Of a DNA stretch of 64,000 nucleotides, positions 11,552-40,580 are shown in pieces. The position numbers and the translations under genes are program-made. The first letter of the stretch is position 1, and every line of letters starts with the position of its first letter. Source of the stretch: a virus; IMG/VR virus record IMGVR_UViG_3300050014_000899; one strand, given 5' to 3'. The notes under the pieces were generated by a model that saw only the letters and a list, made by a program, of their open reading frames with translations, had not been told where the DNA came from and searched no databases.

Positions 11552-11552
11552 A

Positions 11553-15827: not shown

Positions 15828-16607
15828 ATGTATATTCCGGAATTTGAAACAATTAAAATTGAAATTAATAATTATCAAAATAGGGGATTTTTCTCTAAAC
15901 TTTTAAATAAGGAGGTACGGGTAGGAGAAATTGTTGATGTTCATTGGTTATTATTGAGGAAAACCCATTATCGAAGAAATAAGATAAAGATAAAATGTGA
16001 TGGGTGTTCTTCTATAATAGAAAGAGAAATTAGGCATTTAAATATAAATAATTTTAATCATTTTTGCAAAAAATGTTCTAAAATAGGGAATAAAAATCCT
16101 GCATTTGGAAAACCCCAACACCCAAATATTGCAAAAGGGTTAAAAGATTTTATGGATGAATTTGGAAATCCGTCTACATGGGAATCAACAAAAGAAAAAT
16201 TAAGGGAAAAAAGAAAATTACAGGTGATGCCCAAAGGCTGGCATGCATCGGAGGAGACAAAAAAAAGAATGAGTGCCGGAATTAGATTAGCTTATAAAGA
16301 AGGGAGAATTTCGCCTTCTAAAAAATGGGGAAATTCAAAAATATTATTTTATAATGAAATTGGTTATCAAAGTACTTATGAATTAAAATTTTTAAAATAT
16401 TGTGAGGGAATAGGAATATTTGATAAAATTGAAAGGGGGCCTAAGATTCAATATATCGGATTAGATGGAAAATCGCATACATATTTTGTAGATTATAAAT
16501 TAAAAAATAGCAATAAAATTTTTGAAATAAAAAGTTCTTATATTTATAATAAACACCCTAAAATAACAGAATTGAAAAAAGAAGCAGCTTCTAAATTATA
16601 TGATTAA
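15828..16607 (+). CDS. putative homing endonuclease (Zn ribbon, NUMOD3, PD-(D/E)xK/TnsA-like)
   Basis: CxxC pairs, HASEETKKRMS, STYELKF..YFVDY..FEIKS; ATATATA promoter. Confidence 0.8.
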   Translation: MYIPEFETIKIEINNYQNRGFFSKLLNKEVRVGEIVDVHWLLLRKTHYRRNKIKIKCDGCSSIIEREIRHLNINNFNHFCKKCSKIGNKNPAFGKPQHPNIAKGLKDFMDEFGNPSTWESTKEKLREKRKLQVMPKGWHASEETKKRMSAGIRLAYKEGRISPSKKWGNSKILFYNEIGYQSTYELKFLKYCEGIGIFDKIERGPKIQYIGLDGKSHTYFVDYKLKNSNKIFEIKSSYIYNKHPKITELKKEAASKLYD

Positions 16608-26253: not shown

Positions 26254-26805
26254 ATGGAAAATTTAATTTATGGTCTTTATTGTCCTATAAGAAAAAAACC
26301 AGTTTATGTTGGTCAAACTACTAAAGGAATTGATAGACCCTTTCAACATATAAAAGAACGATCTCATAGTAAAAAAGTTAATGAGTGGGTTCATGAATTA
26401 AAGAAGGATGGATTAACTCCAATAATAGTAATTTTGGAGACTTTTGAAGATTCTTCATTGTTGGATGATAAAGAAAGATTTTGGGTTCAGAAATTTTTAA
26501 ACGAAGGCGAATTACTTTTAAATCAACAATTAGTATCCCCTTTAATTTTAACAGTAGCTGAATTTTCAGAACAGAGGGAAACAACATTTAAAGATGAATT
26601 AGCTTTATTTGTTAAGGGAAGGAGAAAAATTTTAAATTTAACTCAGCAAAGATTTTGTGAAAAGACTGGGATTGGATTAAGATTTCTTCGAAGTGTTGAG
26701 CAAGGAAAATTCAAAAAAGATAATTTTAGTACGAAATCAATTGAAACTGTACTTTATTATTTAGGAGCAAGATTAACTATAGGACCTTATAAAAAAGAAG
26801 AATGA
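26254..26805 (+). CDS. GIY-YIG-like domain fused to XRE-type HTH
   Basis: LIYGLYCP..YVGQT and LTQQRFCEKTGIGLRFLRSVEQG; paralog at 45944. Confidence 0.8.
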   Translation: MENLIYGLYCPIRKKPVYVGQTTKGIDRPFQHIKERSHSKKVNEWVHELKKDGLTPIIVILETFEDSSLLDDKERFWVQKFLNEGELLLNQQLVSPLILTVAEFSEQRETTFKDELALFVKGRRKILNLTQQRFCEKTGIGLRFLRSVEQGKFKKDNFSTKSIETVLYYLGARLTIGPYKKEE

Positions 26806-27410
26806 AATTATTTCTCTTAAAAAGAAAATTCGATGGATTTGATCACTGGGATGTTACAATGGGTCTCGTGGTCGCTGCAGATAATGAAAATGATGCTTGG
26901 GAAGTTAATGGAGCAATCAATTTCAATCTTGACCGTCAAGAGGTAGAAATAACAGAATTAGGGGGAGCAAACCCAAACATTGAAAGAGGAATTATTTTGG
27001 AAGATTATAAAAGCTAAATAAGATGTTAACAGAAAAAAATACCGTACTTTTACCTCTTGAAGATTATAATGATCTTAGAGATTTTAAACAGAATCTTGAA
27101 AAAAATAATTCTGCTCGAATTACAGGAGGCAGATACAGTGGTGGAAACTCTTACACTTTTGTGTCTACAGAAGAAACGGTAAAATTGGCTACAAAATTTA
27201 ATGATGAGCTGATTAAGGAAAATAATGAATTAAGATCTAAAGTTTCAGAATTGCAAACTTTGAAGGATCTTCCAAAACCGGCACCAGTACCGTTAAACAC
27301 ATACCAACTTAATGAACTCAAAAATATGACAATTTGGGAGTTCAGAAAATGGAAAAAACAAAAATAAAAATAATTTTACATTAAGTTAAAACTTTTCGGG
27401 AAAATCCCGT

Positions 27411-27420
27411 AATATATAGA
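27411..27420 (+). promoter_or_regulatory. putative phage (late-type) promoter for tRNA operon 1
   Basis: AATATATAGA, same ATATATA core seen before the HE genes and the prohead protease. Confidence 0.55.
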
Positions 27421-27443
27421 GAAACTAATAAATACTACAGCAA

Positions 27444-27548
27444 ATGACAAGGCGTGCAAATATGGATAATTTCGTGGATTGGGGCTTTAATAGAGCAGCC
27501 AATAAAGACGGAGGTTATGGATGCCCGCTAAGGTGGAGAGGTATTTAA
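27444..27548 (+). CDS. attenuator leader peptide of tRNA operon 1 (MTRRANMDNFVDWGFNRAANKDGGYGCPLRWRGI)
   Basis: 34-codon ORF between promoter and terminator; codons 3-24 match downstream anticodons; contains antiterminator GGATGCCCGCT (27519-27529). Confidence 0.8.
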   Translation: MTRRANMDNFVDWGFNRAANKDGGYGCPLRWRGI

Positions 27549-27575
27549 CGAGGTAGTTAAAAAAATCTTTATATT

Positions 27576-27608
27576 AAGCGGGATCCCAACAGGTCCCGCT
27601 TTTCTTTT
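27576..27608 (+). terminator. attenuator terminator upstream of tRNA operon 1
   Basis: AAGCGGGATC-CCAACA-GGTCCCGCTT followed by TTCTTTT. Confidence 0.9.
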
Positions 27609-27675
27609 GATTAAAATTATGGAGCTTAAGCTAATCTAGTGAAAGCACTAACTCATCTAAATTTCTCTACTTTAT

Positions 27676-27762
27676 GGTCTCAGGAGCTGCTAGGCGTGGC
27701 TGCCGGACTGTCACTCCGGAACAGGTAAAACTGACAGGTGGGTTCGAATCCCATTGAGACCG
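27676..27762 (+). tRNA. tRNA-Asp(GTC) with long variable arm
   Basis: GGTCTCA/TGAGACC acceptor, CCGGA-CTGTCAC-TCCGG, TTCGAAT T-loop. Confidence 0.85.
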
Positions 27763-27817
27763 CAACAAATATGCTCGGTAAAGCCTCTTATGATAAATAA
27801 CGTAACTGAGTACTTAT

Positions 27818-27894
27818 AGGGGTGTAGTTCAAGTGGTAGAATAGTGGTCTCCAAAACCAAAGGTTTGCGGGTTCGAGTCCTGCCACCCCTGCCA
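27818..27894 (+). tRNA. tRNA-Trp(CCA)
   Basis: AGGGGTG/CACCCCT acceptor, loop CTCCAAA, encoded CCA. Confidence 0.93.
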
Positions 27895-27984
27895 GAGATT
27901 TAGTATATGTGAAGACTTGAAGGACTTTGGCCCTTGATTTTAGAGCTTACATACTTTCATGCCAATGAAGGAACTAAATCACAA

Positions 27985-28058
27985 GGGGAATTAGCTCAGT
28001 TGGCTAGAGCACCTGCCCTGCAAGCAGGGGGTCACGAGTTCGACTCTCGTATTCTCCA
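27985..28058 (+). tRNA. tRNA-Ala(TGC), C33 variant
   Basis: G3-U70; CCTGC-CCTGCAA-GCAGG. Confidence 0.92.
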
Positions 28059-28189
28059 CTCGAGGATGTTCGGCATCATTCAACTCATTCCAAGAAGGTG
28101 TCAAGTAACGAATGTCTAAGTTAAGTCACAGCGGCCGTACCTATAACGGTCAAAATTTCATGCTCGGGCTTTTTTCCGGTTCGTTACTT
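28059..28189 (+). ncRNA. structured RNA containing a 23S rRNA helix 69 mimic
   Basis: GCGGCCGTACCTATAACGGTC at 28131-28151. Confidence 0.65.
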
Positions 28190-28192
28190 TAT

Positions 28193-28265
28193 GCGCTTTT
28201 AGCTCAGATGGTAGAGTAGGTGCCTCTTAAGCATCGGGTCCAGGGTTCGATCCCCTGAAGGCGCA
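28193..28265 (+). tRNA. tRNA-Lys(CTT)
   Basis: Cloverleaf with loop CTCTTAA. Confidence 0.92.
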
Positions 28266-28350
28266 CAAATGAAAGTGAACGGCGCGTCTACCGTTTAATG
28301 ATTACCGACAAGTTGAAAAAGTCTTGGGCTATAACAGCTTTCATTTATTT

Positions 28351-28426
28351 GGGACGTAGGTCAAACGGTTAAGATGTCGGCCTGTCACGCCGTACGGAGC
28401 GGGTTCAACTCCCGTACGTCCCGCCA
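28351..28426 (+). tRNA. tRNA-Asp(GTC)
   Basis: Cloverleaf, loop CTGTCAC, G73-CCA. Confidence 0.93.
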
Positions 28427-28528
28427 ATATGTAGTAAGAAAAGGGTTACATCGGTTATGATTGGTTCGATTCCAATTTTACCCTGCGAAAGCTCGGGTGA
28501 ATTAAAGCTCTTTTCAATTTTCTCATAT
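28427..28528 (+). ncRNA. Y-RNA-like (YrlA-like) RNA with T-arm and closed acceptor cargo
   Basis: ATATG-TAGTAA..TTACATCG..ATTGG-TTCGATT-CCAAT..AATTTTCT-CATAT. Confidence 0.72.
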
Positions 28529-28534
28529 CGTTTT

Positions 28535-28608
28535 GTCGATAATAGTTTAATGGTAGAATATCCAGCGGTAAAACGAGGGAAGGAACCGGTTCGATTCCGG
28601 CTAAGACT
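28535..28608 (+). ncRNA. degenerate tRNA-like element
   Basis: D-arm and T-arm present; anticodon arm and acceptor are aberrant. Confidence 0.45.
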
Positions 28609-28611
28609 CCT

Positions 28612-28761
28612 GGGAGTATAGCTCAATGGTAGAGCAATTGGCTGTCTACAGACAGAAGTGTCTGAATAAAAACTTTAGGTGAAGTCTTATGAAGTTAAAG
28701 GAATCAAAATCCTCTTCATCTGCTAACCAATAGGTTCTGGGTTCGAGTCCCTGTGCCCCCG
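28612..28761 (+). tRNA. tRNA-Asn(GTT) interrupted by a 78-nt anticodon insertion
   Basis: ATTGG-CTGT[28646-28723]TAA-CCAAT; G73. Confidence 0.75.
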
Positions 28762-28828
28762 CTAATAACTAATAAGCAAAAAGATAAAAGTTCGAAACTT
28801 TTTCTGAATATATAGTAAAAGATATATT

Positions 28829-29548
28829 ATGAAGAGTTGCGAAAATTGTCAAAAAGAGCATGAAGGAACTTATGGTTCTGGAAGATTTTGTTCAGCTGAA
28901 TGTGCTAGGGGATTTAGCACAAAAGAAAAACGTTCTTTGATAAATGAAAAAATAAGCAAAAAAATGAAAGGATCGGGACATTCTGATATAAAAATAATTT
29001 GTCCTATATGCCAAACAGAATTTGAAGTTTCATGGAATAAAAGAAATCAAAAATTTTGTTCACGAAATTGTTCAATGAGATTTTCTAATTCTCAACCAGA
29101 AAATATAAAAAATTTATCTTTAAAAAGAATCAACAAAATACTTAAAGGACAAGTAAATGATTATGGTATAAAGATGATATATAAATTCAAAAATAAGGAT
29201 ATTAAATGCGATTCAAAAATAGAATTTGCTTGTTTAAATTTTTTTGAAACTAAAGAGGCATCAGAGATGGAAAGATGCAATCTAATTATTGAATATAAGG
29301 ATAAAGATAAAATAAGAAGATTTAATCCGGATTTTAAAATAAAAATAGATAATAATATTTATATTGTTGAAGTTAAGAGTTATATGAGTATTAAATCTAT
29401 AAATGAAAAATGGCGAAATTATAATGAATTATCTAAATTGAAAAAAGAAGCTTTAATAAATTTTTGTCAATTAAATAACTATATTCCCTTTTGGTTTACA
29501 AAAGATTTAAACAGAAATTTTTATAATAATGTTTCGGTCGTACTATAA
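28829..29548 (+). CDS. putative homing endonuclease (Zn fingers plus PD-(D/E)xK)
   Basis: CENC..GSGRFCS, FNPDF..IVEVKS; ATATATA promoter. Confidence 0.8.
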   Translation: MKSCENCQKEHEGTYGSGRFCSAECARGFSTKEKRSLINEKISKKMKGSGHSDIKIICPICQTEFEVSWNKRNQKFCSRNCSMRFSNSQPENIKNLSLKRINKILKGQVNDYGIKMIYKFKNKDIKCDSKIEFACLNFFETKEASEMERCNLIIEYKDKDKIRRFNPDFKIKIDNNIYIVEVKSYMSIKSINEKWRNYNELSKLKKEALINFCQLNNYIPFWFTKDLNRNFYNNVSVVL

Positions 29549-29606
29549 TTGGTCAGACTGCACTCTGTTAAAGTGAATAATGTAGGTTCGAATCCTACCC
29601 GAAACG
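29531..29606 (+). tRNA. tRNA-Asn(GTT), atypical D-arm
   Basis: GTTTCGG/CCGAAAC acceptor, CACT-CTGTTAA-AGTG, T-arm. Confidence 0.75.
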
Positions 29607-29680
29607 CCGCGCCGCCCAAAGGACGGATGCCCTGGTCACACAAAACCGTATTTGTGCAACTCACCTACGGGGTGAGTATT

Positions 29681-29917
29681 GCCCTGGTAGTTTAACTGGA
29701 GGAGGAACATGAAGTTATTAAATGCTCTCAACACTCAGCGCTGAGATGTTGGTCAAAGAGACATCAGACCTGATAAAAAAGTTAGGGAGGTGCAAAGGCA
29801 TTTATTAAAGAATGGTGGAATAGCTTGCCATCCAAATTTAATTTATGCTGGTAATAGACATTCCGAGAATTCTGGATTCGTTCAGAGGTGTGGGTTCGAT
29901 TCCCGCTGGGGGTTCCA
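29681..29917 (+). ncRNA. tRNA-like RNA with a ~165-nt structured insert replacing the anticodon loop
   Basis: GCCCTGG plus D-arm at the 5' end; TGAA/TTCA stem; T-arm plus TGGGGGT-T-CCA at the 3' end. Confidence 0.6.
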
Positions 29918-29925
29918 ATTTTAAA

Positions 29926-29998
29926 GTTCTTTTAGCTCAGTTGGAAGAGCGCTTCCGTGACATGGAAGAGGCCGTAGATTCGAGTTCTACAAGGAACA
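29926..29998 (+). tRNA. tRNA-Val(GAC)
   Basis: CTTCC-GTGACAT-GGAAG. Confidence 0.9.
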
Positions 29999-30003
29999 CA
30001 AAC

Positions 30004-30079
30004 AGCGACATAGCTCAGTGTGAGAGCGCTCCCGTTCATAGGGAGAGGTGCGGAGGTTCAATTCCTTCTGTCGCTACCA
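30004..30079 (+). tRNA. Met-scaffold tRNA with loop GTTCATA (formal anticodon TCA, or off-centre CAT)
   Basis: AGCGACA/TGTCGCT-A-CCA; CTCCC-GTTCATA-GGGAG. Confidence 0.65.
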
Positions 30080-30080
30080 A

Positions 30081-30182
30081 GGGAGTATAAGCTGTTAGAT
30101 GCATAAACAGCCATACGGGAGAACGGCGAATTTGGTGCTAAGACCATCATCCGCTGAGAGGGTTCGAATCCCTTTACTTCCA
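30081..30182 (+). ncRNA. tRNA-like RNA with expanded D and anticodon domains
   Basis: GGGAGTA/TACTTCC acceptor and a canonical T-arm. Confidence 0.55.
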
Positions 30183-30247
30183 CGAAATTCACTGTGAAGG
30201 TGAAATTTAATTTTCTTTCCAAAAGTTCGAACATAAGAAAGAAGATT

Positions 30248-30322
30248 TGCGATATAGAGCAGTGTTAGCTCGCTCCCGGGAAAAGGGAGAGGTCGGAGGT
30301 TCAATTCCTTCTGTCGCGACCA
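30248..30322 (+). tRNA. tRNA with GAA (Phe) anticodon on the same scaffold as 30004
   Basis: CTCCC-GGGAAAA-GGGAG; T-arm identical to 30004; CCA end. Confidence 0.65.
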
Positions 30323-30396
30323 GTTCCTTTAGCTCAGCTGGAAGTAGCGCCACCCCTACATGGTGGATGTCATAGGTTCGATCCCTATAAGGAACA
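30323..30396 (+). tRNA. tRNA-Val(TAC), C33 variant
   Basis: CCACC-CCTACAT-GGTGG. Confidence 0.85.
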
Positions 30397-30397
30397 C

Positions 30398-30537
30398 AAA
30401 CTGTAGTAAAACAGCGAGTTACTTCGTATTCCAAACGACTAGTCTAGGTGCAAATCCTGGGTCCCCTGCCAAAATTACTTAGGGGATTAGTGTAATAGAT
30501 AGCACAGTAAAAACACTCAAGTTAAATTTCTCAGTTT
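30398..30537 (+). ncRNA. Y-RNA-like RNA containing a circularly permuted tRNA-Trp
   Basis: Scaffold encloses the 3' half (TTCCAAA..T-arm..GTCCCCT-G-CCA) before the 5' half (AGGGGAT plus D-arm). Confidence 0.78.
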
Positions 30538-30539
30538 AC

Positions 30540-30641
30540 GGGAATGAAACTATTAGGGGGCGGAACCCTTTTATCCACAGTAGGAATAGTGATAAGGAAG
30601 CAGGCCGATCACCTGAGTGAGTTCGATTCTCACCATTTCCA
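30540..30641 (+). ncRNA. tRNA-like RNA (acceptor and T-arm, novel interior)
   Basis: GGGAATG/CATTTCC; GTGAG-TTCGATT-CTCAC. Confidence 0.55.
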
Positions 30642-30699
30642 CTAGTAGACCGTTATAATTTCATAGGACTCACATTGGAGAGTACAGCGTAGAAATTAA

Positions 30700-30773
30700 T
30701 GGGACACATGTTCCAAGGCAAGGCGAATGAGTTTTGCAAACTTGTTGGGAGGTTTCGATTACCTTTGTCTCCA
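30700..30773 (+). tRNA. atypical tRNA-Ala(TGC)
   Basis: G3-U70, loop TTTGCAA, U1/C72 mismatch, unusual D-arm. Confidence 0.7.
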
Positions 30774-30778
30774 CACAC

Positions 30779-30874
30779 TGCGGAAGAGTGAAACGGATAG
30801 AGATTTTAATTAATTTCGCTATCATCCAGGGCTCATAACCCTCGGGATATTGGGTTCGACTCCCATTTCCGCTA
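30779..30874 (+). tRNA. initiator-type tRNA-Met(CAT) with extended D-arm
   Basis: 1:72 mismatch, GGG/CCC anticodon stem, ~20 extra nt in the D-loop. Confidence 0.8.
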
Positions 30875-30880
30875 CTAAAA

Positions 30881-30984
30881 ACAAATGGCAGCACAACACC
30901 TAAAGGGACGCTTTTAAGGTAGTGGCCGAAGCATCGAAAATCAGAAATGACCTGCCGATGTAAAAAACGAATCCGGGCGTTTGT
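30881..30984 (+). ncRNA. unknown structured RNA
   Basis: ACAAATG/CGTTTGT closure, GCATCG/CGATGT helix, possible GGCAG/CTGCC pseudoknot. Confidence 0.45.
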
Positions 30985-30991
30985 TTTATAT

Positions 30992-31078
30992 GCCGTCGTG
31001 CCAGAGTGGCCAATCGGGGAGGGCTCATATCCCTTGGCTTTTATAGCCCCATAGGTTCGAATCCTATCGACGGTACCA
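30992..31078 (+). tRNA. class II (Leu-like body) tRNA with CAT anticodon
   Basis: GCCGTCG/CGACGGT-A-CCA, loop CTCATAT, variable arm GGCT-TTTAT-AGCC. Confidence 0.8.
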
Positions 31079-31094
31079 AATTTAATGTATAAAA

Positions 31095-31601
31095 ATGTAT
31101 TATACAATTTACAAAACTACGAATAAATTTAATGGCAAGTTTTATATCGGAAAGCATCAGACTCAGAAATTAAATGATAATTATTTAGGGTCTGGAAAAG
31201 CTTTGGAACTGGCTATTAAGAAATACGGTAAAGAGAATTTTCAAAAAAGAATTATTTTTGTTTTTGATAATGAAATTTTAATGAATCAAAAAGAAAAAGA
31301 AATTGTTACAGAGAATTTTATATCCAGCAATACAAATTATAATTGTGGGGTTGGGGGAGAAGGAGGAGCTCAATTCTTAAATAAATCTCACTCTGAAAAA
31401 ACTAAAAAATTGCTTGCTGAAAAAGCTAAATTAATAAAGCCCTCTAAAGAAACTAGAGATAAAATATCAGAGGGTAATAGAAAAAGAACATTATCTAAAG
31501 AAACAAGAAATAAACTCTCTCAAAAATCTTTCGAGAGATGGAAAAAATTGCGGGTTGGAGAAAATAGTCATCTCATTGGGCTCATAACCCAAGGTTGCTA
31601 G
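31095..31601 (+). CDS. GIY-YIG homing endonuclease (SegB-like)
   Basis: YTIYKTTN..FYIGKH, YLGSG, NUMOD3. Confidence 0.92.
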   Translation: MYYTIYKTTNKFNGKFYIGKHQTQKLNDNYLGSGKALELAIKKYGKENFQKRIIFVFDNEILMNQKEKEIVTENFISSNTNYNCGVGGEGGAQFLNKSHSEKTKKLLAEKAKLIKPSKETRDKISEGNRKRTLSKETRNKLSQKSFERWKKLRVGENSHLIGLITQGC

Positions 31602-31624
31602 GGCGGTACTAGTGCCCGCTACCA
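31549..31624 (+). tRNA. initiator-type tRNA-Met(CAT)
   Basis: TTGGG-CTCATAA-CCCAA, 1:72 mismatch, divergent T-loop, CCA. Confidence 0.8.
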
Positions 31625-31629
31625 ATTAA

Positions 31630-31741
31630 GCTGTAGTAACTGTAAGAATTACTTCGTTGAGTTCGATTCTCAATTTTCCCGCCAGATTTTAAAGGGAAAA
31701 TCGCCACAAAGGGTGGCATTATTCTTCTAATTTTTCTCAGC
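31630..31741 (+). ncRNA. Y-RNA-like (YrlA-like) RNA with T-arm, acceptor and D-like cargo
   Basis: GCTG-TAGTAA..TTACTTCG-TTGAG-TTCGATT-CTCAA-TTTTCCC..GGGAAAA..ATTTTTCT-CAGC. Confidence 0.75.
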
Positions 31742-31797
31742 GAAAATACATGCCGGATGACCCCCGTTGTATCACGGTGCCGGCTCCAATAAGGTCA

Positions 31798-31870
31798 GAT
31801 CTCGTAGCTCAGTTGGTAGAGCACATCCCTTTTAAGGATGGGGTCCTGGGTTCGAGCCCCAGCGGGATCA
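31798..31870 (+). tRNA. tRNA-Lys(TTT)
   Basis: Canonical cloverleaf, loop CTTTTAA. Confidence 0.95.
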
Positions 31871-31871
31871 C

Positions 31872-31977
31872 AATCGTAGTAATGGAAAGAGTTACTTCGT
31901 GCTAATGGTTAGCAAAATCCTGTTAAGATTACTTCGCGGTTCAATTCCGCCTGTTACCTCTTCCGATTTTCTCGATT
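31872..31977 (+). ncRNA. Y-RNA-like RNA carrying D, anticodon (GTT) and T arms
   Basis: AATCG-TAGTAA..TTACTTCG, D-arm, AATC-CTGTTAA-GATT, T-arm..GATTTTCT-CGATT. Confidence 0.72.
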
Positions 31978-31980
31978 ATG

Positions 31981-32054
31981 GGAGCTTAGCTCAGTTGGTT
32001 CAGAGCATCTGCCTTACAAGCAGAGGGTCGAGGGTTCGAATCCCCCAGTTCCCA
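31981..32054 (+). tRNA. tRNA-Val(TAC)
   Basis: Canonical, loop CTTACAA. Confidence 0.95.
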
Positions 32055-32143
32055 CATAACGTATAAAATAATATACGTTAACTAAGAAAAAGGGACTTAA
32101 TGTATAATATTTTATCCGTTATGACCCGATAATATCCGATAAT

Positions 32144-32216
32144 GGTCCGGTAGCTCAATGGATAGAGCACCTGCCTTCTAAGCAGGTGGTTGAGAGTTCG
32201 AGTCTCTCCCGGATCA
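32144..32216 (+). tRNA. tRNA-Arg(TCT)
   Basis: Canonical, loop CTTCTAA. Confidence 0.95.
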
Positions 32217-32223
32217 CTAATTT

Positions 32224-32298
32224 GGTCTCATAGTACAACGGATAGTGCGCGAGTTTCCTAAACTTGAAATCCGGGTTCGATTCCCAGTGAGATCACCA
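32224..32298 (+). tRNA. tRNA-Arg(CCT)
   Basis: Loop TTCCTAA, CCA end. Confidence 0.92.
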
Positions 32299-32579
32299 AA
32301 TAATTTATAAACATGACTCATACTCTTAAGCAAATTGTTAAGGGTAATACTGCTCGCTTTTCATATGCATGCGAAGGGAAGCTCTATTACACTATTGAAG
32401 TAGAAGAATCAGTATATCAAGTAGAATTGGACAGTACCGCCGATGAATGGAGGGCAACATATATGACCCCAACTTTTCCTGCCATCACTCTTATGAGATG
32501 GATCAGAAAAGGTATGGAAAATGAAAAATTTATTCAGATAAAGTAGACAACTTTAGGATATTTTTCGTATATTTGTCCC

Positions 32580-33011
32580 ATGGTAATTCACGAAATATTG
32601 AAGGAACATGGGATTTTTAGTAATGACATAAAAGTCAAAATTAAAAATGGCCAGATTAAATTAAATGGAGAAGTTGTTACGGATCCTTTAATGGATTTGG
32701 ATATTGAATTCGTGAAGAAGGAGGACCGGCCTACCAAAGAAACCCCTGCATTTGAAGATGCTGGAAATTTTCTTTTCAGAGCAATTAGTAAAGACAAAGA
32801 ATGTTTTGACTTATGTACAGCTATGGGGGTTGATGGATTGGGTATTCATCCAGAATTTTGGCCAGATTTGAATTTTACCAACAAACTAGTTGAAAAATTT
32901 AGAAAGGTTTATGTCTTAAAGATTTCTAAAAAAGAATGGATCATACTCCAGAAAAAAGAAGTTGAAATTGAAACGGAAGAATTTTTAATATTGAAGAAAA
33001 ATGATTGTTAA
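32580..33011 (+). CDS. hypothetical protein with N-terminal S4-like RNA-binding motif
   Basis: LKEHGIFS..IKNGQIKLNGEVVTDP. Confidence 0.55.
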   Translation: MVIHEILKEHGIFSNDIKVKIKNGQIKLNGEVVTDPLMDLDIEFVKKEDRPTKETPAFEDAGNFLFRAISKDKECFDLCTAMGVDGLGIHPEFWPDLNFTNKLVEKFRKVYVLKISKKEWIILQKKEVEIETEEFLILKKNDC

Positions 33012-33230
33012 AAAAAGAACTGATAAGATTGAAGTTGACCTGACAGGTCCGCATGGAAATGCTTATGCTCTTTTAGGATTAGCAAGTGATATTTGCAAGA
33101 ATTTAAATCGTCTTGCAGGAAAAGAATTATATGACTTCAAAGAAATTGAAAAAGATATGAAGAGTTCTGATTATGAACATCTTTTGGAAGTTTTGGAAGA
33201 ACACTTTGGTAACTTTATAATATTATACAG

Positions 33231-33638
33231 ATGAGATTTGCAAATGATCCAGCGGAGCCAACAACTCCCACGAACCCGAAATTATCTTCGATAGCTTATA
33301 CATTGTCAAAATTGACTGTATTGGAAGCTAAAGAATTAGCTGATATACTTGAAAACGATTTTGGTATCAAGAAAGCTAAAACAGAGTTTAAACCTGCAGG
33401 ATATGAACCTGTTCCTGAAGTGGAACAAACTGAATTCAATGTTTACCTCAAAGAAATTGGCAATCAAAAATTGCAGGTTATAAAAAAGGTCCATGAAGTA
33501 ATGGGATTGGGTCTTAAAGAAGCCAAAGCATTGGTTGATTCTACCCCCTGTCTTTTAAAAGAAAAGATTTTAAAAGCTGAAGTAACAACCATAAAAGCCG
33601 AATTGGAAAATGTCGGAGCAGTAGTGGAAGTGAGATGA
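33231..33638 (+). CDS. rplL: ribosomal protein L7/L12
   Basis: LTVLEAKELADILE, EQTEFNV, KLQVIK..GLGLKEAKALVD. Confidence 0.93.
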   Translation: MRFANDPAEPTTPTNPKLSSIAYTLSKLTVLEAKELADILENDFGIKKAKTEFKPAGYEPVPEVEQTEFNVYLKEIGNQKLQVIKKVHEVMGLGLKEAKALVDSTPCLLKEKILKAEVTTIKAELENVGAVVEVR

Positions 33639-34313
33639 AATTAAAGAACCTCATATTAGCATTAAAAGATCAAGGTCCGCTTAAAAGAGCTTTTCGAAAC
33701 TTCTTTATAACTGGAAATGCATGGGGTTTATTTTCCATAAACTCTCACATAAGGCAGGATACTCAAAAGCCAAAGGTGACTTATAATACTCAAGAAACAG
33801 CTGCTAAATCAGCTATCAGTTTGGGTAAGAAAAATGGGGTTCACTTTAGCTATTACAAATGTGCTTACTGTGATGGTTATCATATCGGTAAGAATAGAGA
33901 CAATAAAACAAATGAAAAATAGAGCAAAAGGTTTTTATTGGGTTCAATATGCAAATTTATCTTGGGTAGTTTGCGAATGGGATGGTGTCCAATGGCATCA
34001 CCAAGGGGCAAGTTATCCGGATGAAAGTTTTAAACAGATTCATGAGATAAGAATTGAGCCTCCAAAACCCAAAGATGTTAGAAATTCCGATGGTATATGG
34101 ACTCCAGAATGTTTAATTTTTTAAAATGAGAATAATAATCACAGCTGAAGAAGCAATCGATAAAGGAATCTGGGAAGATTTATGCGACATGGTCGGATAC
34201 AGTTATTATGCAGTTAACGAAGGTATGGACCCTGATACAGAAATTTCTTTAACAGAGGATCAAGCAAGACAGCTGGGAGTAATACCTGCAAAAAATAGTA
34301 TTTCCTGGGACTA

Positions 34314-34948
34314 ATGAAAGCATATCACACAATACAGAAATATACCGAGGATCACTATGGAAAGTTTGTATGGGCTTTCGATAAGGTAGATGGATCTAAT
34401 TTCAGGTAGAGTGGGATAGAAAACTTTCAAAGAAAAGCCAGTTTACATTTGGATTCAAAAAATTCGGGACAAGAACCGAAATGATAATGAACAACAGAAA
34501 TCCATTTATTGAAGCTGTTACTTTGTTTGAAATGGAATATGCTCCAAAATTTGACCAGATTTTTAAAGACGCAAAAGAGCTAAGAGGAGTTCCGATAATT
34601 ACCTTATTTGGAGAGTTTTATGGTCCAGGTAGCTTTGCAGGTATGCACGATTGGAACGCTACCCATAGTTTAACATTTTTCGATGCGGCAATATATAAGA
34701 AGGGATACCTTCCTCCATCAGATTTTCAAAATCTATTTGGAGAACTCCCCATACAAAAACTTATTTGGAAAGGAATTTTCAATGAGGAATTTGTAAAAAG
34801 AGTAGAAGCCAATGAATTCGGACTTTCCGAAGGAATAGTTTACAAGGGCGTTGAAGACGGAGATGTCTTTATGGGCAAAATCAAAACTCTTCAATGGCTC
34901 GAAAGTATAAGAAATAAGTACGGTATCAAAAAAATGCTAGAGTACTAA
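34314..34948 (+). pseudogene. Rnl2-like RNA ligase with a 1-nt frameshift near 34406
   Basis: Motif I DKVDGSNFR then TAG; the other frame continues with FGEFYG, FFD, EGIVYK and KIK motifs. Confidence 0.75.
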
Positions 34949-35135
34949 TGGAAGATTTCAAAAAGAAGCGAAAAGATCTTCGCGATCGAAAAAGAGAAGC
35001 AATGAACGAGGAATATAAATCCGCCAAAGAAAGAAAAGGGGTTGTTAACACATTTAAAAGAGAATCCAGATCCATTAAGAGATCTGAGAAAAATGAAATA
35101 AAGAAAGTTCTTCGGAACGATTTTGGAATTTAAAC

Positions 35136-35211
35136 GCGCCGGTATCACGCCTCGCTACGAACGAGGAGAAGTGTAATTGGACACATGAGGGTTCGAATCC
35201 CTTTCGGCGTT
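35136..35211 (+). tRNA. non-canonical tRNA-Arg(ACG) with D-loop relocated 3' of the anticodon arm
   Basis: 7-nt linker, CCTCG-CTACGAA-CGAGG, then AGAAGTGTAATTGGACACAT and a T-arm. Confidence 0.75.
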
Positions 35212-35215
35212 CTAA

Positions 35216-35375
35216 TGGGTAAAGTGTTATACGGTCTGAAGCCCGGGTTTGGGAAATGAATCATCAGAGTACCTCAGGTCTATAAAATAACACAAGAGGG
35301 GAATCTTTTCAGATGATCAATCCTTCAAAGACGCTGAATTTATCCAGGTGGGAAGGGTTCGCCCGATTCTCACCA
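35216..35375 (+). ncRNA. unknown structured RNA
   Basis: TGGGTAAA/TTTATCCA closure, GTGTTAT/ATAACAC pseudoknot, terminal hairpin ending in CCA. Confidence 0.5.
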
Positions 35376-35379
35376 AATT

Positions 35380-35451
35380 GCGGAGGTAGTATAACGGTTA
35401 GTATAGGGCCTTGCCAAGGCTCAGATGGGTTTTCGATTAACCTTCTCCGCA
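35380..35451 (+). tRNA. tRNA-Gly(GCC)
   Basis: GGGCC-TTGCCAA-GGCTC; GCGGAG acceptor. Confidence 0.88.
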
Positions 35452-35503
35452 CAAAGTAGCAAAATTGGTAGAGCGCATGTGAATATATATAGAAAATATT
35501 CGC

Positions 35504-36310
35504 ATGCTACCAAGAAATAAAAAAAATTGTGAAAAATGCAATAAAGAAATAAGTTTGTCTAATTTTAATTTGCATTATTCTTCATGTAAAGGAAATATAG
35601 AAGAAACAAAGATAAGAGTAAAAGAAGAATGGAAATTGGTCAACGGAAAATACAAATGTCCATATTGTAATAAAGAGTATTCGAAGAATGGAATTTCTAC
35701 ACATATTATAAGAAATCATACCGAAAAAGGAAAAGGGCAAAATCCCAATATTGGTTTTTTAAAGGAAACCCAAATTATTTGGAATAAGGGGTTATCAAAG
35801 GAAACAAATAAAAGTCTTGAAAATCTTTCAAAAACATTATTAAAAAAATATAAATCTGGAGAATTAAAATCCGGATTTAAAAATAAAAAACATAATAAAA
35901 TATCATGTGAAAAAATGTCTAAAAGTGCTATTCTAGCATTTCAAGAAGGAAGACATTCTGGATGGGTTTCAAGAAAAATACAAAGTTATCCTGAGATATA
36001 TTTTGAAAAGGTTTTAAAAAGCAAAAAGTTATTTGAAGAATGTATCCCTGAATATTTTATTAAACATAAAAACAATTCTAATTATTTTTTGGATTTTTAT
36101 TTTCCAAATAAAAGGATTAATTTAGAAATTGATGGCTCTCAACATGAATTGGAAGATCGAAAAATATCTGATAATCAAAGAGATAATTTTTTATCAGAAC
36201 AAAATATATTTGTTTTTAGAATAAAATGGAGAAACCCAAAATCATTAGATGGTAAAAAATATTTGGAGAATAAAATAAAAGAATTTATTGAATTATACAA
36301 GCGGAAGTAG
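35504..36310 (+). CDS. putative homing endonuclease (Zn finger plus DUF559/Vsr-like)
   Basis: CPYC..H..H, SYPE, YFLDF..LEIDGSQH..RD. Confidence 0.85.
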   Translation: MLPRNKKNCEKCNKEISLSNFNLHYSSCKGNIEETKIRVKEEWKLVNGKYKCPYCNKEYSKNGISTHIIRNHTEKGKGQNPNIGFLKETQIIWNKGLSKETNKSLENLSKTLLKKYKSGELKSGFKNKKHNKISCEKMSKSAILAFQEGRHSGWVSRKIQSYPEIYFEKVLKSKKLFEECIPEYFIKHKNNSNYFLDFYFPNKRINLEIDGSQHELEDRKISDNQRDNFLSEQNIFVFRIKWRNPKSLDGKKYLENKIKEFIELYKRK

Positions 36311-36373
36311 CTCAGTTGGTAGAGCACCGTCCTTCCACGTCGGGGGTCGCGAGTTCGAACCTCGTCTTCCGCT
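36301..36373 (+). tRNA. tRNA-Gly(TCC)
   Basis: GCGGAAG/CTTCCGC-T, loop CTTCCAC. Confidence 0.93.
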
Positions 36374-36380
36374 CAATTTT

Positions 36381-36452
36381 GCCTCTATGGTGTAATGGAT
36401 AACATGGGTGACTTCGGATCATCTGTTACGGGTTCGAATCCTGTTAGGGGCA
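36381..36452 (+). tRNA. tRNA-Arg(TCG)
   Basis: GGTGA-CTTCGGA-TCATC. Confidence 0.9.
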
Positions 36453-37464
36453 CAACTTTTTTAAACTAAAATAATGAATTATACAAATTATATTTTAAGC
36501 GGAAACTCTATCAATATCAATTCTCTCATCTCCAAAAAAAGATACTTAAAACCAATAACTATTACAATTGCTATTCCAGTAGCTATAGTAGGATTTCTAG
36601 CATTTTCGGGAATATTACCAGCAACCTATATAATAGATCGTGTTAAAGAAGGAGAAATTAAATATCTTAAAGTTATAAGAAAATATAAAAGAAACAAAGA
36701 GTTTCAAGCTTTTTTAGAAACCATTTCAGATGATAAAGAAGAAATGAAAAGAATCAAAAAAATGTATCATTAATCATGAAAAAATTATTCGATGGTCATT
36801 AGGTAAGAAAGTTACCTAAAATAAGACCATTATGAGAAGAAGACATTATTTGAAAACGACTCAAATACTTGAGCACACCACAAATCGTAGAGAATTTAAA
36901 ATTCTTACCACCGTTGATCAAGATCCATATCCTGAAGAGTATGGGTATTACCAAAAGCACAAATGGGGATTCAGAGGATGCAGAAAGTCCAGATTAATCT
37001 GGAAACATCAAGTAAGAATGTATCGTACTTGGAAGCATAATAGAAAAACCCAGTATAAATATAATAAAAACGATGGATATATCCACAATAACGAAGGAAC
37101 AATTTGATTTAGCTTATAATAAGTTTCAACCAAATGCTTGGGTCAAATTTGGATTTAAGTACTTTTCTAATAGTACTTTAAAAGAAAATTTCAAAATAAA
37201 GAAAACTGTAACTTGGATTCTCGGTGTTCTTTTTGGAATTGGTTTTTTAGCAACTGTAATTGGATTACCGCACAATGTAATTGCAGTTCCTGTTCTAATA
37301 TATTCAGGAATTATTGTTATTTTAGCTATTATTATGGGGGGATCCGCTCTAATGAATAATCTGAGAATTAAAAAAATTCAGAAAGAATTAGGAGTAAACA
37401 TTTGGCAATATGAAGCTTTAGTAAATATGTTTTATCCAACCCCTATCAACCCACTTCAAAATTA

Positions 37465-38052
37465 ATGAATAAATTGAGTCCTTTTCTTCAATACAAGGAC
37501 ATCCTTGAGAAATATTTGTCTCCTAAAACCATTTTTAAATTAAAGGAGGCTTGGAATGAACCCAGAAGAAGGTATCATAATGAAGATCACTTATATCAGA
37601 TTTTAAAAGATCTCGAAAAAAGTAAATCAAAAGTATCTTCAGTTCAATGGGAATCTTTAGTAATAGCCGCTTTCTTTCACGATGCTATTTATGTTCCGGG
37701 GAATTCCAATAACGAGGATCAGTCCATTAAAGTTTTCTTAGAGTCTTTTTTAGGAAAAAGATTTGATATGGTTAAAGCTATTAAAGAAATGATCAAAGCA
37801 ACTCAATTTAGAGTGGTTCCAGCGGATAAACTAGTTAAGATTTTTTGGGAAGCAGATAATGCAGGATTCCAGGGACCATTTGAAAGTTTTTTAGAAACCG
37901 AGAAGAAGATTAGATTAGAGTTTGGACATGTTTCTTTGCATACTTATAAGAAAGGAAGACTAAAGTTTCTCAATTCCTGTTTAGGATTAATGGGGCCAAA
38001 AGCAGACGAAAACGTCTCAAAACTAATCGAGTACATAGAAAAAAATTACTAA
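37465..38052 (+). CDS. HD-superfamily metal-dependent phosphohydrolase
   Basis: RRYHNEDH, AAFFHDAIY..NEDQS, EAD. Confidence 0.85.
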   Translation: MNKLSPFLQYKDILEKYLSPKTIFKLKEAWNEPRRRYHNEDHLYQILKDLEKSKSKVSSVQWESLVIAAFFHDAIYVPGNSNNEDQSIKVFLESFLGKRFDMVKAIKEMIKATQFRVVPADKLVKIFWEADNAGFQGPFESFLETEKKIRLEFGHVSLHTYKKGRLKFLNSCLGLMGPKADENVSKLIEYIEKNY

Positions 38053-38589
38053 TTTTAACGTTTTTTCTTCAAAAATATTTTTTTTCTAAGTAAAATAATT
38101 GTACATTTACTATGAAATTAAAAATAAGAGATATGAGAACCACAGGCGTTATCGAATTCGAAGGATTTAAATTCAAAAATACAGAATTTCAATTTAAGAA
38201 CAAGAAAGAGATGAACAGCTTTTTTAATGAGGTTCTTATTGATAGTCCTCAGAGATTCATTAATACTTTGGATCGTTGGAATTTGGAAAATATGCACATT
38301 GCGTTTTCACAATTTATGCTGATGAAAGTTATTGCTTTTTCAGGTCTTGGAATGGGATTAGTATCAATACTTGCAAAGCTTCCGTCAATTGTTGGAATTG
38401 GTTTCGTAGTAATGGCAGCAGTTAATTATATTGCAAGCAAAAAAGCCGAAAAAAGACTTGATAACATCAACTACAGCAGAGGAGATTATGAAATGATGGC
38501 TGAAGGACTTGATGAAGTTCGTGAAGATTTAATAAAAGAAAAAAATTCAAAGTAATACAAAACCTAAGCATTTTTACGTATATAAGATA

Positions 38590-38600
38590 GATATATAAAG
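38590..38600 (+). promoter_or_regulatory. putative phage (late-type) promoter for tRNA operon 2
   Basis: GATATATAAAG. Confidence 0.55.
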
Positions 38601-38621
38601 AAACAACAAAAAGTTAAAACA

Positions 38622-38699
38622 ATGAAAAGGCAGTCCATACATACGATTAGTATTACCTCATCACACGATAAGGGCGGCCTTTTTATGACTAGACTTTAG
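38622..38699 (+). CDS. attenuator leader peptide of tRNA operon 2 (MKRQSIHTISITSSHDKGGLFMTRL)
   Basis: Codons 5-15 are all Ser/Ile/His/Thr and match the operon; alternative 1:2, 2:3 and 3:4 pairings. Confidence 0.87.
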   Translation: MKRQSIHTISITSSHDKGGLFMTRL

Positions 38700-38724
38700 T
38701 ACTAAGATATTAAATGATTTATTC

Positions 38725-38757
38725 AAAGGAAGGCTCCAATCAGTCTTCCTTTTTTTT
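38725..38757 (+). terminator. attenuator terminator upstream of tRNA operon 2
   Basis: AAAGGAAGGCT-CCAATC-AGTCTTCCTTT followed by T-tract. Confidence 0.9.
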
Positions 38758-38762
38758 GTTTT

Positions 38763-38848
38763 GGAGAGTAGCATTCGATGGTGGATAACAGGTCTCGAAA
38801 ACCTGGCCGGCGGTTCAAATCCCAAGGGTTCGACTCCTTTACCCTCCG
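38763..38848 (+). tRNA. tRNA-Ser(CGA)
   Basis: Loop CTCGAAA, long variable arm, G73. Confidence 0.85.
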
Positions 38849-38864
38849 CTAGAAAATAAAATAT

Positions 38865-38954
38865 GGATGGGTACCCAAATTGGTTAAGGGGGCGGTCTTG
38901 AAAACCGTTAGGTCGTGTAAACACGGCGCGTGGGTTCGAACCCCACCTCATCCG
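38865..38954 (+). tRNA. tRNA-Ser(TGA)
   Basis: Loop CTTGAAA, long variable arm. Confidence 0.93.
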
Positions 38955-38957
38955 CAA

Positions 38958-39027
38958 GGGGCGAAACCAACTTCGCAAGTTGGATCTGGATTTAGCTACC
39001 AGATAAGCATATGTGTGATGCTGTCCC
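38958..39027 (+). ncRNA. four-way cloverleaf RNA without tRNA consensus motifs
   Basis: GGGGCG/TGTCCC closing three hairpins. Confidence 0.5.
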
Positions 39028-39033
39028 GGTTAT

Positions 39034-39110
39034 GGTGGTATTAGTGTTAGTGGTAAGCACGAAAGTCTGTGGAACTTTTAGGATGGGTTCGAATCCCATA
39101 TAACACCCCA
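39034..39110 (+). tRNA. tRNA-His(GTG), encoded G-1
   Basis: Loop CTGTGGA, C73, CCA. Confidence 0.92.
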
Positions 39111-39114
39111 TTAT

Positions 39115-39194
39115 GGTAGACGTAGCTTAATTGGTTAAAGGGCCAGATTGTGGATCTGATGCGATTGAGGGTTCGAATCCCTTCGTCTACCCCA
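39115..39194 (+). tRNA. tRNA-His(GTG), second copy, encoded G-1
   Basis: Loop TTGTGGA, C73, CCA. Confidence 0.9.
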
Positions 39195-39195
39195 C

Positions 39196-39268
39196 GCCTC
39201 TATAGTATAGTTGGTAATTATAGCTGATTCGTAATCAGCAGACTGGGATTCGAATTCCCGTAGAGGCT
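39196..39268 (+). tRNA. tRNA-Thr(CGT)
   Basis: GCTGA-TTCGTAA-TCAGC. Confidence 0.9.
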
Positions 39269-39275
39269 CAATAAT

Positions 39276-39349
39276 GCACCCTTAGCTCAGCTGGTAGAGC
39301 ACTTGCTTGGTAAGCAAGAGGTTCCCGGATTCGATCTCCGGAGGGTGCT
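39276..39349 (+). tRNA. tRNA-Thr(GGT)
   Basis: CTTGC-TTGGTAA-GCAAG. Confidence 0.92.
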
Positions 39350-39430
39350 CAAAAGCATACGTGTATGCGACAATAGTGAAGAGTGGTAATACACCCCGCC
39401 GTTAACTTGAGGAGGTCAGGCACTATTTTT

Positions 39431-39515
39431 GGAGGGTTGACCGAGAGGTAAGGTATCGCTCTGGAAAGGCGAAGTCAGGGTTAAACTTGGGTGGGATCGT
39501 TACCCGCATCCTCCG
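39431..39515 (+). tRNA. tRNA-Ser(GGA)
   Basis: Loop CTGGAAA, long variable arm, G73. Confidence 0.87.
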
Positions 39516-39522
39516 CAAAAAT

Positions 39523-39595
39523 ACTGGTGTGGCGCAATGGTAAGCGCAGGACCCTTATAAGGTCAAGGTTGGGGGTTCAAGTCCCTTCACCAGTA
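39523..39595 (+). tRNA. tRNA-Ile(TAT)
   Basis: Loop CTTATAA, A73. Confidence 0.88.
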
Positions 39596-39602
39596 CAAAT
39601 TT

Positions 39603-39679
39603 CGGCCTGTATACCCTCTGTCTGATAAACAGTTGAAAGGTTAGCTGGTTGCATAGTGGTTCGACTCCACTCAGGCCGA
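39603..39679 (+). tRNA. non-canonical tRNA-Ile(GAT) with relocated D-loop
   Basis: CGGCCTG/CAGGCCG, 7-nt linker, CTGT-CTGATAA-ACAG; same architecture as 35136. Confidence 0.75.
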
Positions 39680-39685
39680 CAAAAT

Positions 39686-39758
39686 GGGCGTATCATATAG
39701 TTGGTTAGTATACGTGCCTGATAAGCACGACACGGAGGTTCGAGGCTTCCTATGCCCA
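39686..39758 (+). tRNA. tRNA-Ile(GAT)
   Basis: CGTGC-CTGATAA-GCACG. Confidence 0.9.
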
Positions 39759-39833
39759 CAAATTCTAGAGGGTTAAGAAATGGGGATAGCAATCTAGCCT
39801 GCATTTTTACGGATATATATAATAAATAATATT

Positions 39834-40580
39834 ATGTATAAGTGTAATCATTGCGATAAAGAATTTGAATTAAAACAACAAAAAACTAATCATGAAAGAT
39901 GGCATGCCAATCCTAAACACAATGAGATTAAAAAAGAATATTGTTGTTCGATATGTGGAAAAACATTTACAAATTTTGGATGGAAACAAATTCATGAAAA
40001 ATATTGTGATGGATCAGGATTAACTAAAAAAGAAAAAATTCTTAAAAACAGAGAAAATAATAAAGGCAAAACTTTTGATGAAATTTTAGTTCAAAAAGGA
40101 ACTTATGAAAAGTTTTGTCAAAATGTATCTTTTGGAATGAAAGAAGCTTTTAAAGAAGGCAAATTTACCGGATCCCCATCTACAGAAGAAGGCAAAAAAA
40201 GAAAAAATGAAAAATTAAGACAGAGTACATTAAAAAGATACAAGGAGGGGTGGGATTCAAAATGTGGAAGAGCTCCTAAATATCATTACGAAAGCAAGAT
40301 AGCAGGAAAAATAACTGTTGATGGGTCATGGGAATTAAATGTAGCCAAATATTTAGATAACAATAATTTTAGATGGATTAGAAATACAAAAAGATTTGAT
40401 TATGTTAATTTAGAAGGAAAACAATCAACATATAAACCGGATTTTTATATTTTTAATTGGAGTAGTTATTTAGAAATAAAAGGATTTGAAACAAAACTGG
40501 ATAAATGTAAATGGGAGCAATTTAAAGAACCCCTAATAATATGGAAAAGAAATGATTTAAAAGAATTAAAAATAATTTAA
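39834..40580 (+). CDS. putative homing endonuclease (C2H2 fingers plus PD-(D/E)xK)
   Basis: CNHC..HERWH, GSWE, YKPDF..LEIKG. Confidence 0.82.
   Translation: MYKCNHCDKEFELKQQKTNHERWHANPKHNEIKKEYCCSICGKTFTNFGWKQIHEKYCDGSGLTKKEKILKNRENNKGKTFDEILVQKGTYEKFCQNVSFGMKEAFKEGKFTGSPSTEEGKKRKNEKLRQSTLKRYKEGWDSKCGRAPKYHYESKIAGKITVDGSWELNVAKYLDNNNFRWIRNTKRFDYVNLEGKQSTYKPDFYIFNWSSYLEIKGFETKLDKCKWEQFKEPLIIWKRNDLKELKII

Follow-up and report, generated by a model that had tools for sequence, protein, structure and literature searches.

The 64,000-nucleotide (nt) stretch of viral DNA in IMG/VR record IMGVR_UViG_3300050014_000899, referred to below as the window, holds a region (27676-39759) filled by transfer RNA (tRNA) genes with homing-endonuclease-like open reading frames (ORFs) scattered among them. 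In front of the first group of tRNA genes (operon 1) lies a short leader, leader 1, which was analysed here as a candidate leader-peptide attenuator. Its parts, in the coordinates of the window, are as follows.

27411-27424, + strand: promoter-like motif, an AT-rich box resembling the T4 late-promoter type, ~20 nt 5' of the leader start codon
27444-27548, + strand: leader 1 ORF, 34 codons plus TAA, in frame in 12 distinct DNA variants
27450-27515, + strand: sensing block, codons 3-24, using only amino acids that have tRNAs downstream
27451-27458, + strand: region 1, the 5' strand of the stem that closes the ORF hairpin (anti-antiterminator), pairing with 27522-27529 in the minimum free energy structure and in the RNAalifold consensus
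27519-27529, + strand: region 2, the putative antiterminator strand, whose partner is region 1 or the terminator 5' arm
27576-27586, + strand: region 3, the terminator 5' arm
27591-27611, + strand: region 4, the terminator 3' arm (27591-27601) and the T-rich tail

Translation of the ORF together with a six-frame run test bore out the proposal of a first-pass annotation of this DNA that a 34-codon ORF at 27444-27548 is restricted to ten amino acids, codons 3-24 being confined to Arg, Ala, Asn, Met, Asp, Phe, Val, Trp, Gly and Lys. The longest run of this ten-amino-acid set in the six frames of the window was leader 1 itself, with 22 codons, while the runner-up reached 12, and only 0.0006 runs of such length were expected by chance per window. 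Each of the amino acids was sampled one to four times, and the probability that 22 draws cover all ten is 0.14. The same annotation had pointed out that AGG, CGT, AGA, GGC and GGA are used separately; all five were present in codons 3-24, as was GGT, and the three Arg and three Gly codons of this panel are all distinct, with a separate phage isoacceptor for each. The panel includes codons that are minor in the phage (AGG, CGT, GTG, GGC, GCC), and because these match separate phage isoacceptors, the choice of codons fits a sensor of decoding.

The promoter-like motif ahead of the ORF recurs before a second leader (leader 2, at 38590) and before structural genes at 59139 and 60385. The window has 8 matches against 1.5 expected when one mismatch is tolerated, and the motif region of leader 1 is strongly conserved among relatives. 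From this we infer that 27411-27424 acts as a promoter, and as one of late type. A Shine-Dalgarno-like sequence was found upstream of only 1 of 38 genes of the window, and the leader ORF is likewise devoid of one. Rarity of Shine-Dalgarno sequences is as expected for a Bacteroidota-type host, and since the genes of the window are generally without them, the missing ribosome-binding site was not counted against translation of the leader.

Downstream of the leader, tRNAs for Asp (two), Trp, Ala, Lys (CTT, TTT), Val (GAC, and TAC twice), Met, Arg (TCT, CCT, TCG) and Gly (GCC, TCC) were found as had been claimed, and the genes of operon 1 are arranged in the following order.

27621-27649, + strand: 5' remnant of a Phe-anticodon tRNA-like gene, next to a deletion of ~440 nt, from alignment with relative L138
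27676-28426, + strand: tRNAs Asp (GTC, 88 nt, long variable arm), Trp (CCA), Ala (TGC), Lys (CTT) and Asp (GTC)
28612-28761, + strand: interrupted tRNA, probably Asn (GTT), alternatively Ser (GCT), with a 78-81 nt insertion in the anticodon loop
29926-30397, + strand: tRNAs Val (GAC), suppressor (TCA), Phe-like (GAA, no U33) and Val (TAC)
30992-32298, + strand: tRNAs Met (CAT), Lys (TTT), Val (TAC), Arg (TCT) and Arg (CCT), with a homing-endonuclease-like ORF (31095-31601) between them
35136-36453, + strand: distal tRNAs Arg (ACG)-like without a D arm, Gly (GCC), Gly (TCC) and Arg (TCG), with an endonuclease-like ORF (35504-36310) inside

The further claim that these tRNAs serve exactly the ten amino acids of the leader could be upheld in part. 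The ten amino acids are the same, but the correspondence depends on three atypical tRNAs (Asn, Phe and Arg ACG) and leaves out the suppressor. The interrupted gene at 28612-28761 is a class I tRNA whose spliced anticodon would be GTT or GCT according to where the splice falls. Its insertion has a short CTG repeat at its flanks and is smaller than a typical group I intron; synteny with an intact tRNA-Asn in relatives favours its assignment as probably Asn. The Phe-like tRNA (GAA) at 30248-30322 is without U33 and is a paralogue of the adjoining suppressor tRNA (TCA) at 30004-30079, which was absent from the first-pass list. Both members of this pair have an encoded CCA end, and together they hint at UGA read-through or recoding in the phage. 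In place of the tRNA (TCA), relatives have tRNA (CTA) suppressors (L075, L076). The Arg (ACG)-like gene at 35136-35211 has a long variable arm, no D arm and a score at the Rfam threshold, and is unlike the normal tRNA-Arg (ACG) that occupies the syntenic place in relatives. Directly after the leader, the deletion of ~440 nt in the window removed a Phe-like tRNA, a tRNA-Lys and a tRNA-Gly; L138 retains the whole Phe-like element, followed by tRNA-Lys (TTT) and tRNA-Gly (TCC). The 88-nt tRNA-Asp (GTC) at 27676-27763, which gave no Rfam call, has an odd D arm, adjoins a normal tRNA-Asp and is conserved in relatives (L069, reverse strand, 3024-3111).

The leader was then compared across related giant T4-like phages, using the tRNA regions of five relatives and one metagenome scan by leader pattern, which together yielded 12 distinct DNA variants of leader 1. 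Loss of the reading frame in relatives had been named in advance as grounds for abandoning the idea; start codon, frame and TAA stop were kept in all 12 variants. Insertions and deletions within the ORF comprised whole codons only, whereas those 3' of the stop codon measured 1, 2 and 11 nt. Within the sensing block the variants differed by 3 synonymous changes, 7 amino-acid replacements and 2 inserted codons. All seven replacements and both inserted codons stayed within the set of ten amino acids, against a null expectation of 0.39 of possible single-base replacements, even though several were chemically drastic (Asp/Val, Gly/Asp, Ala/Gly/Val). Past codon 24 the peptide is not conserved, whereas the nucleotides of region 2 are. 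Because replacements stay in the set while the tail conserves region 2 and not the peptide, selection on the start of the ORF seems to concern which tRNAs are called, and selection on its end seems to concern RNA pairing. The leader is conserved across relatives whose prohead protease is 57-75% identical to that of the window. The relative at the lower end of this range, G004 (57%), has a different leader 1 of similar composition, followed by a terminator and tRNAs for Lys, Gly, Asp, Trp, Ala and others. In several relatives a T-rich stretch and then a TTGACAT motif lie between the terminator T tract and the first tRNA, and also between some tRNAs (L069, reverse complement, ~12905-12920; L071, ~13865-13880; L072, reverse complement, ~9812-9826; L074, reverse complement, ~15815-15830). 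This motif, perhaps an additional promoter element or a signal for processing, is missing after both leaders of the window.

Both competing RNA structures described in the first-pass annotation, a terminator after the ORF and an antiterminator of 10 base pairs (bp) with one bulge between 27519-27529 and the terminator 5' arm, were recovered. Among + strand sites in 26500-40500, the strongest terminator-like one is the hairpin at 27576-27601, followed by T-rich sequence, whose 10 pairs give -16.3 kcal/mol; leader 2's own terminator ranks second. The duplex of region 2 with region 3 (27519-27529 with 27576-27586), containing 10 bp and one bulged G, reaches -17.1 kcal/mol; in the whole 64 kb, only 8 sites pair equally well with the terminator 5' arm, the terminator itself among them. 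Across the variants the 2:3 duplex ranges from -17 to -20 kcal/mol and the terminator from -12 to -18, and in each variant the duplex equals or exceeds the terminator in strength, region 2 mimicking the terminator 3' arm in every case. In the ribosome-free fold a long hairpin over the ORF, closed by the 1:2 pairing, forms along with the terminator. RNAalifold recovered both the ORF hairpin and the terminator from the 12 variants, and the three variable pairs of the ORF hairpin are all wobble-compatible; the positions of the 1:2 closing stem are invariant, and therefore no covariation could be counted there. At the top of the 2:3 helix, four different complementary versions occur among the variants, one of which pairs the otherwise bulged G. 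In the 2:3 columns 88% of cells were paired, compared with 29-65% when the partners were slid, and two column pairs were changed on both sides. Since the column-based covariation was weakened by a one-column misalignment of two variants, we relied instead on the per-sequence duplex energies.

Folding of the leader with ribosome-footprint constraints, as the first-pass annotation had suggested, gave the predicted switch. An equilibrium model was used to fold the RNA 3' of a stalled ribosome, on the assumption that the ribosome covers -15 to +11 nt around the A site, for the leader of the window and seven relatives. With the A site at codons ~3-22 the antiterminator was dominant, and from codons 22-25 onward the terminator was dominant; the ribosome-free transcript was predicted to form the terminator. 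The switch point falls within about two codons of the end of the in-set block. In this model, thus, a stall within the panel frees the antiterminator strand, whereas a ribosome farther on, or none at all, does not.

The second leader of the window offered a comparison within the same genome. It had been described as unrelated in sequence to leader 1 yet following the same logic, and this description agrees with the shared layout and with the match of each leader to its own cluster. For its Ser/Ile/His/Thr set, the longest run in the six frames of the window is leader 2 itself, with 11 codons, the next having 7 (0.013 expected), and three relatives retain leader 2 with synonymous changes. In G004 and G005 a third class of leader, with many codons for Cys, Gln, Leu, Pro, Tyr and Glu, stands before the tRNAs for those amino acids. 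In G004 the tRNA-His gene lies in operon 1, and it is there leader 1 that has a His codon, whereas leader 2 (L073, reverse strand, 8529-8588) has none. Beyond this group, unrelated small ORFs and strong terminators lie directly before the first tRNA of the cluster in Lak-A1, Lak-B2 and LR756500, with a composition matching the cluster. In these published megaphages one ORF matches a His/Pro/Arg/Gly/Cys/Met cluster and the other the remaining amino acids, and in Lak-A1 the segment right after the panel again mimics the terminator 3' arm. When only the amino acids exclusive to one cluster were counted over the whole ORF, Fisher p values were 0.0026 for the window, 0.0008 for G004, 0.0003 for Lak-A1 and 0.0006 for Lak-B2. 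The additional leaders are located as follows.

38622-38699 of the window: leader 2, 11 Ser/Ile/His/Thr codons in a row, followed by a terminator and by tRNAs for Ser, His, Thr and Ile only
Lak-A1 (MK250016): leader ORFs at L149 764-892 and L148 (reverse complement) 815-994
Lak-B2 (MK250021): leader ORFs at L151 804-932 and L150 765-878
LR756500: leader ORF at L154 (reverse complement) 416-490

We consider it quite likely, on these sequence comparisons, that leader 1 is a ribosome-mediated (leader-peptide) transcription attenuator gating a phage tRNA operon, and that the phage probably makes the downstream tRNAs only when ribosomes decode their codons slowly. The leader has a short ORF 5' of the genes that would be regulated, regulatory codons matching their products, an intrinsic terminator and a mutually exclusive antiterminator. 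In the proposed mechanism a transcript would start at the phage promoter (27411-27424), its first ~180 nt containing the 34-codon ORF, in which codons 3-24 form a panel decoded by the downstream tRNAs. With no ribosome on the leader, or with one that has passed ~codon 22 on its way to the stop, region 2 would be locked to region 1 or covered by the ribosome; being unavailable, it would leave the terminator (27576-27601 and T tract) to form, and transcription would stop before the tRNA genes. Where an aminoacyl-tRNA is scarce, the ribosome would stall inside the panel, the ORF hairpin would open and region 2 would pair with the terminator 5' arm, and with this antiterminator formed RNA polymerase would read into the tRNA genes. 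The supply of precisely these tRNAs would come under negative feedback, with two or three such leaders per genome dividing the twenty amino acids among them. The feedback would most likely operate during late gene expression, since the promoter motif is common to the leader and the structural genes. What was observed directly is the anatomy, the run statistics, the conserved frame, the confinement of substitutions to the set and a pair of competing structures similar in strength; from them we infer that the ORF is translated, that transcription and translation are coupled, that the promoter is used and that the leader responds to tRNA supply. We also lean towards the wider view that tRNA supply is kept in homeostasis in giant phages infecting Bacteroidota-type hosts (this clade, Lak megaphages and huge phages related to them) by two or three codon-panel attenuators per genome, each of which would switch on its own operon only when its codons decode slowly. 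Such slow decoding could stem from host tRNA decay, from an anticodon-nuclease defence or from the codon demand of late genes.

Several observations weigh against an attenuator at leader 1. The panel leaves Lys (CTT), Val (GAC), Arg (TCG) and the suppressor (TCA) of operon 1 unsampled. Among the relatives, L135 and L143 carry tRNA-His in operon 1 behind a leader 1 without a His codon, phages of the G002 type have a tRNA-Leu directly after a leader whose panel has no Leu, and one cluster of G005 has no leader within 400 nt upstream. Promoter-like motifs occur at 28807 and 35482, 5' of the inserted endonuclease ORFs that start at 28829 and 35504, and from these the distal tRNAs could bypass the attenuator; given the motif at 35482, the link of the tRNAs at 35136-36453 to the leader transcript is uncertain. 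As for the RNA, the ORF hairpin was only moderately better than shuffled sequence (z = -1.75), and covariation of the antiterminator was not significant, ~52-58 of 500 shuffles reaching the observed value with variants that are few and related. In the footprint model, stalls at codons 11-14 and 20-22 of the window leader still favour the terminator, and the antiterminator of leader 2 is weak at equilibrium.

The same attenuator could instead respond to amino-acid starvation or general translation stress, through uncharged tRNA, and not to the abundance of particular tRNAs. Attenuators of the leader-peptide kind, such as those of trp and his, cannot tell a shortage of tRNA from a shortage of charging, and a panel of 10 amino acids is broad enough for such a role. 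A stress sensor, however, needs no partition, whereas a genome has two or three leaders, every one of them sampling the amino acids of its own cluster only; the His codon tracks the tRNA-His gene between operons in G004, and extra tRNA gives no relief from amino-acid starvation. We thus regard this explanation as unlikely. It could also be envisaged that the ORF encodes a conserved micro-protein with its own terminator and a function unrelated to tRNAs, the tRNA genes being expressed by constitutive read-through or from other promoters. This would account for the in-frame conservation of the ORF with its start and stop codons, and internal promoter-like motifs are indeed present. Nevertheless, replacements that are physico-chemically non-conservative and yet confined to the set, together with a C-terminal tail not conserved as protein, are not what a micro-protein would lead one to expect; the unrelated ORFs of Lak and LR756500 match their own clusters likewise, and the terminator 3' arm is mimicked by region 2 in every variant. 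Such a micro-protein seems quite improbable.

Two further explanations do without translation of the leader or without any function for it. An RNA-only switch, in which the leader would bind tRNAs directly by codon-anticodon contacts in the manner of a T-box, is suggested by the position of the element before genes of the translation apparatus and by its terminator/antiterminator pair. Against it stand the conserved ATG and stop, the indels of whole codons and the contiguous 22-codon frame, which are the needs of translation and not of a single specifier loop, and 27370-27680 gave no match to the T-box or any other Rfam family even at E = 10; we hold this to be highly improbable. A T-box riboswitch proper, which has a Stem I with a specifier loop and a conserved T-box antiterminator sequence, was rejected, as no Rfam T-box match was obtained in 27370-27680 with E up to 10. 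Finally, short ORFs are common in AT-rich DNA, and one could lie by chance beside the ordinary terminator of an upstream gene. With ~0.0006 such runs expected per window, with the ORF kept among relatives at 57-75% protease identity, and with independent replicates present, this is hardly credible, the chance reading being refuted by the run statistics, the in-frame conservation and the cluster-exclusive Fisher tests.

The attenuator favoured here has its closest parallels in amino-acid operons of enterobacteria, where the ilvGMEDA leader senses Ile, Leu and Val and the thr leader Thr and Ile as multivalent attenuators. Like these, leader 1 is a short leader sampling several amino acids, with 1:2, 2:3 and 3:4 pairings of four RNA regions and an intrinsic terminator before the first regulated gene, and a stall in its panel would favour read-through. 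Unlike them, it is phage-encoded, would regulate tRNAs and not biosynthetic enzymes, samples ten amino acids where the enterobacterial leaders have runs of two or three kinds, is without a Shine-Dalgarno sequence, has a phage promoter motif common to structural genes, and is one of two to three leaders per genome that partition the amino acids. The pheM leader, which attenuates the pheST (phenylalanyl-tRNA synthetase) operon of E. coli, also represents leader-peptide attenuation of a gene of the translation apparatus by sensing the decoding of cognate codons; pheM, however, senses one amino acid and controls a synthetase rather than tRNA genes, and the sequences are unrelated. T-box riboswitches likewise place genes of the translation apparatus under terminator/antiterminator control responsive to tRNA status, but a T-box is untranslated and directly binds one uncharged tRNA, and its signature is absent from 27370-27680, over which Rfam has no family.

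Discussion of tRNA genes in phages usually centres on the matching of codon usage or on evasion of host defences that cleave tRNA, and to our knowledge little has been established about how their expression is controlled. A literature search found no published description of attenuator control for phage tRNA clusters or for tRNA genes. If the attenuator is real, these would be the first tRNA genes under leader-peptide attenuation and this the first attenuator to read a ten-amino-acid panel, which would carry classical attenuation beyond amino-acid biosynthesis and into the tRNA pool. Phages would then gauge their capacity to translate each individual codon and replenish it as needed. The leader would be a compact natural sensor of tRNA availability, usable as a reporter, and its panel allows a prediction, from sequence only, of which tRNAs a phage treats as one regulatory unit. 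As the same layout is present in published Lak megaphage genomes, the idea is testable on public data.

The window has 34% GC, and nearly all of its genes lie on the + strand. A Gp23-type capsid protein and a prohead protease identify its source as a T4-like giant phage. GenBank phage DNA gave matches to tRNAs only and no close relative, and IMG/VR gave zero close relatives when searched with the upstream 114-residue protein and with a 20-mer from the leader, matched exactly; scanning IMG/VR with a 16-mer returned mostly chance matches and only two leader variants, both already known here. The relatives found by the protease include one complete genome of 405 kb, and the nearest named phages by this protein are the Lak megaphages of Prevotella together with uncultured huge phages, at 33-37% identity. 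As in the tRNA clusters of T4, KVP40 and Lak, a tRNA block is here mixed with homing-endonuclease genes in a T4-like genome. The corresponding genes of the window are as follows.

60385-62751: prohead protease gene
from 62822: Gp23-type capsid protein gene
26254-26805, 28829-29548, 31095-31601 and 35504-36310: homing-endonuclease-like ORFs among or beside the tRNA genes (PD-(D/E)XK, NUMOD3, DUF559/Vsr-like, phrog_314)

Elsewhere in the window, genes were seen for a TonB-dependent receptor-like outer-membrane protein (11472-13520), a nicotinate phosphoribosyltransferase (7734-8912) and a radical-SAM protein resembling lysine 2,3-aminomutase (22652-23821).

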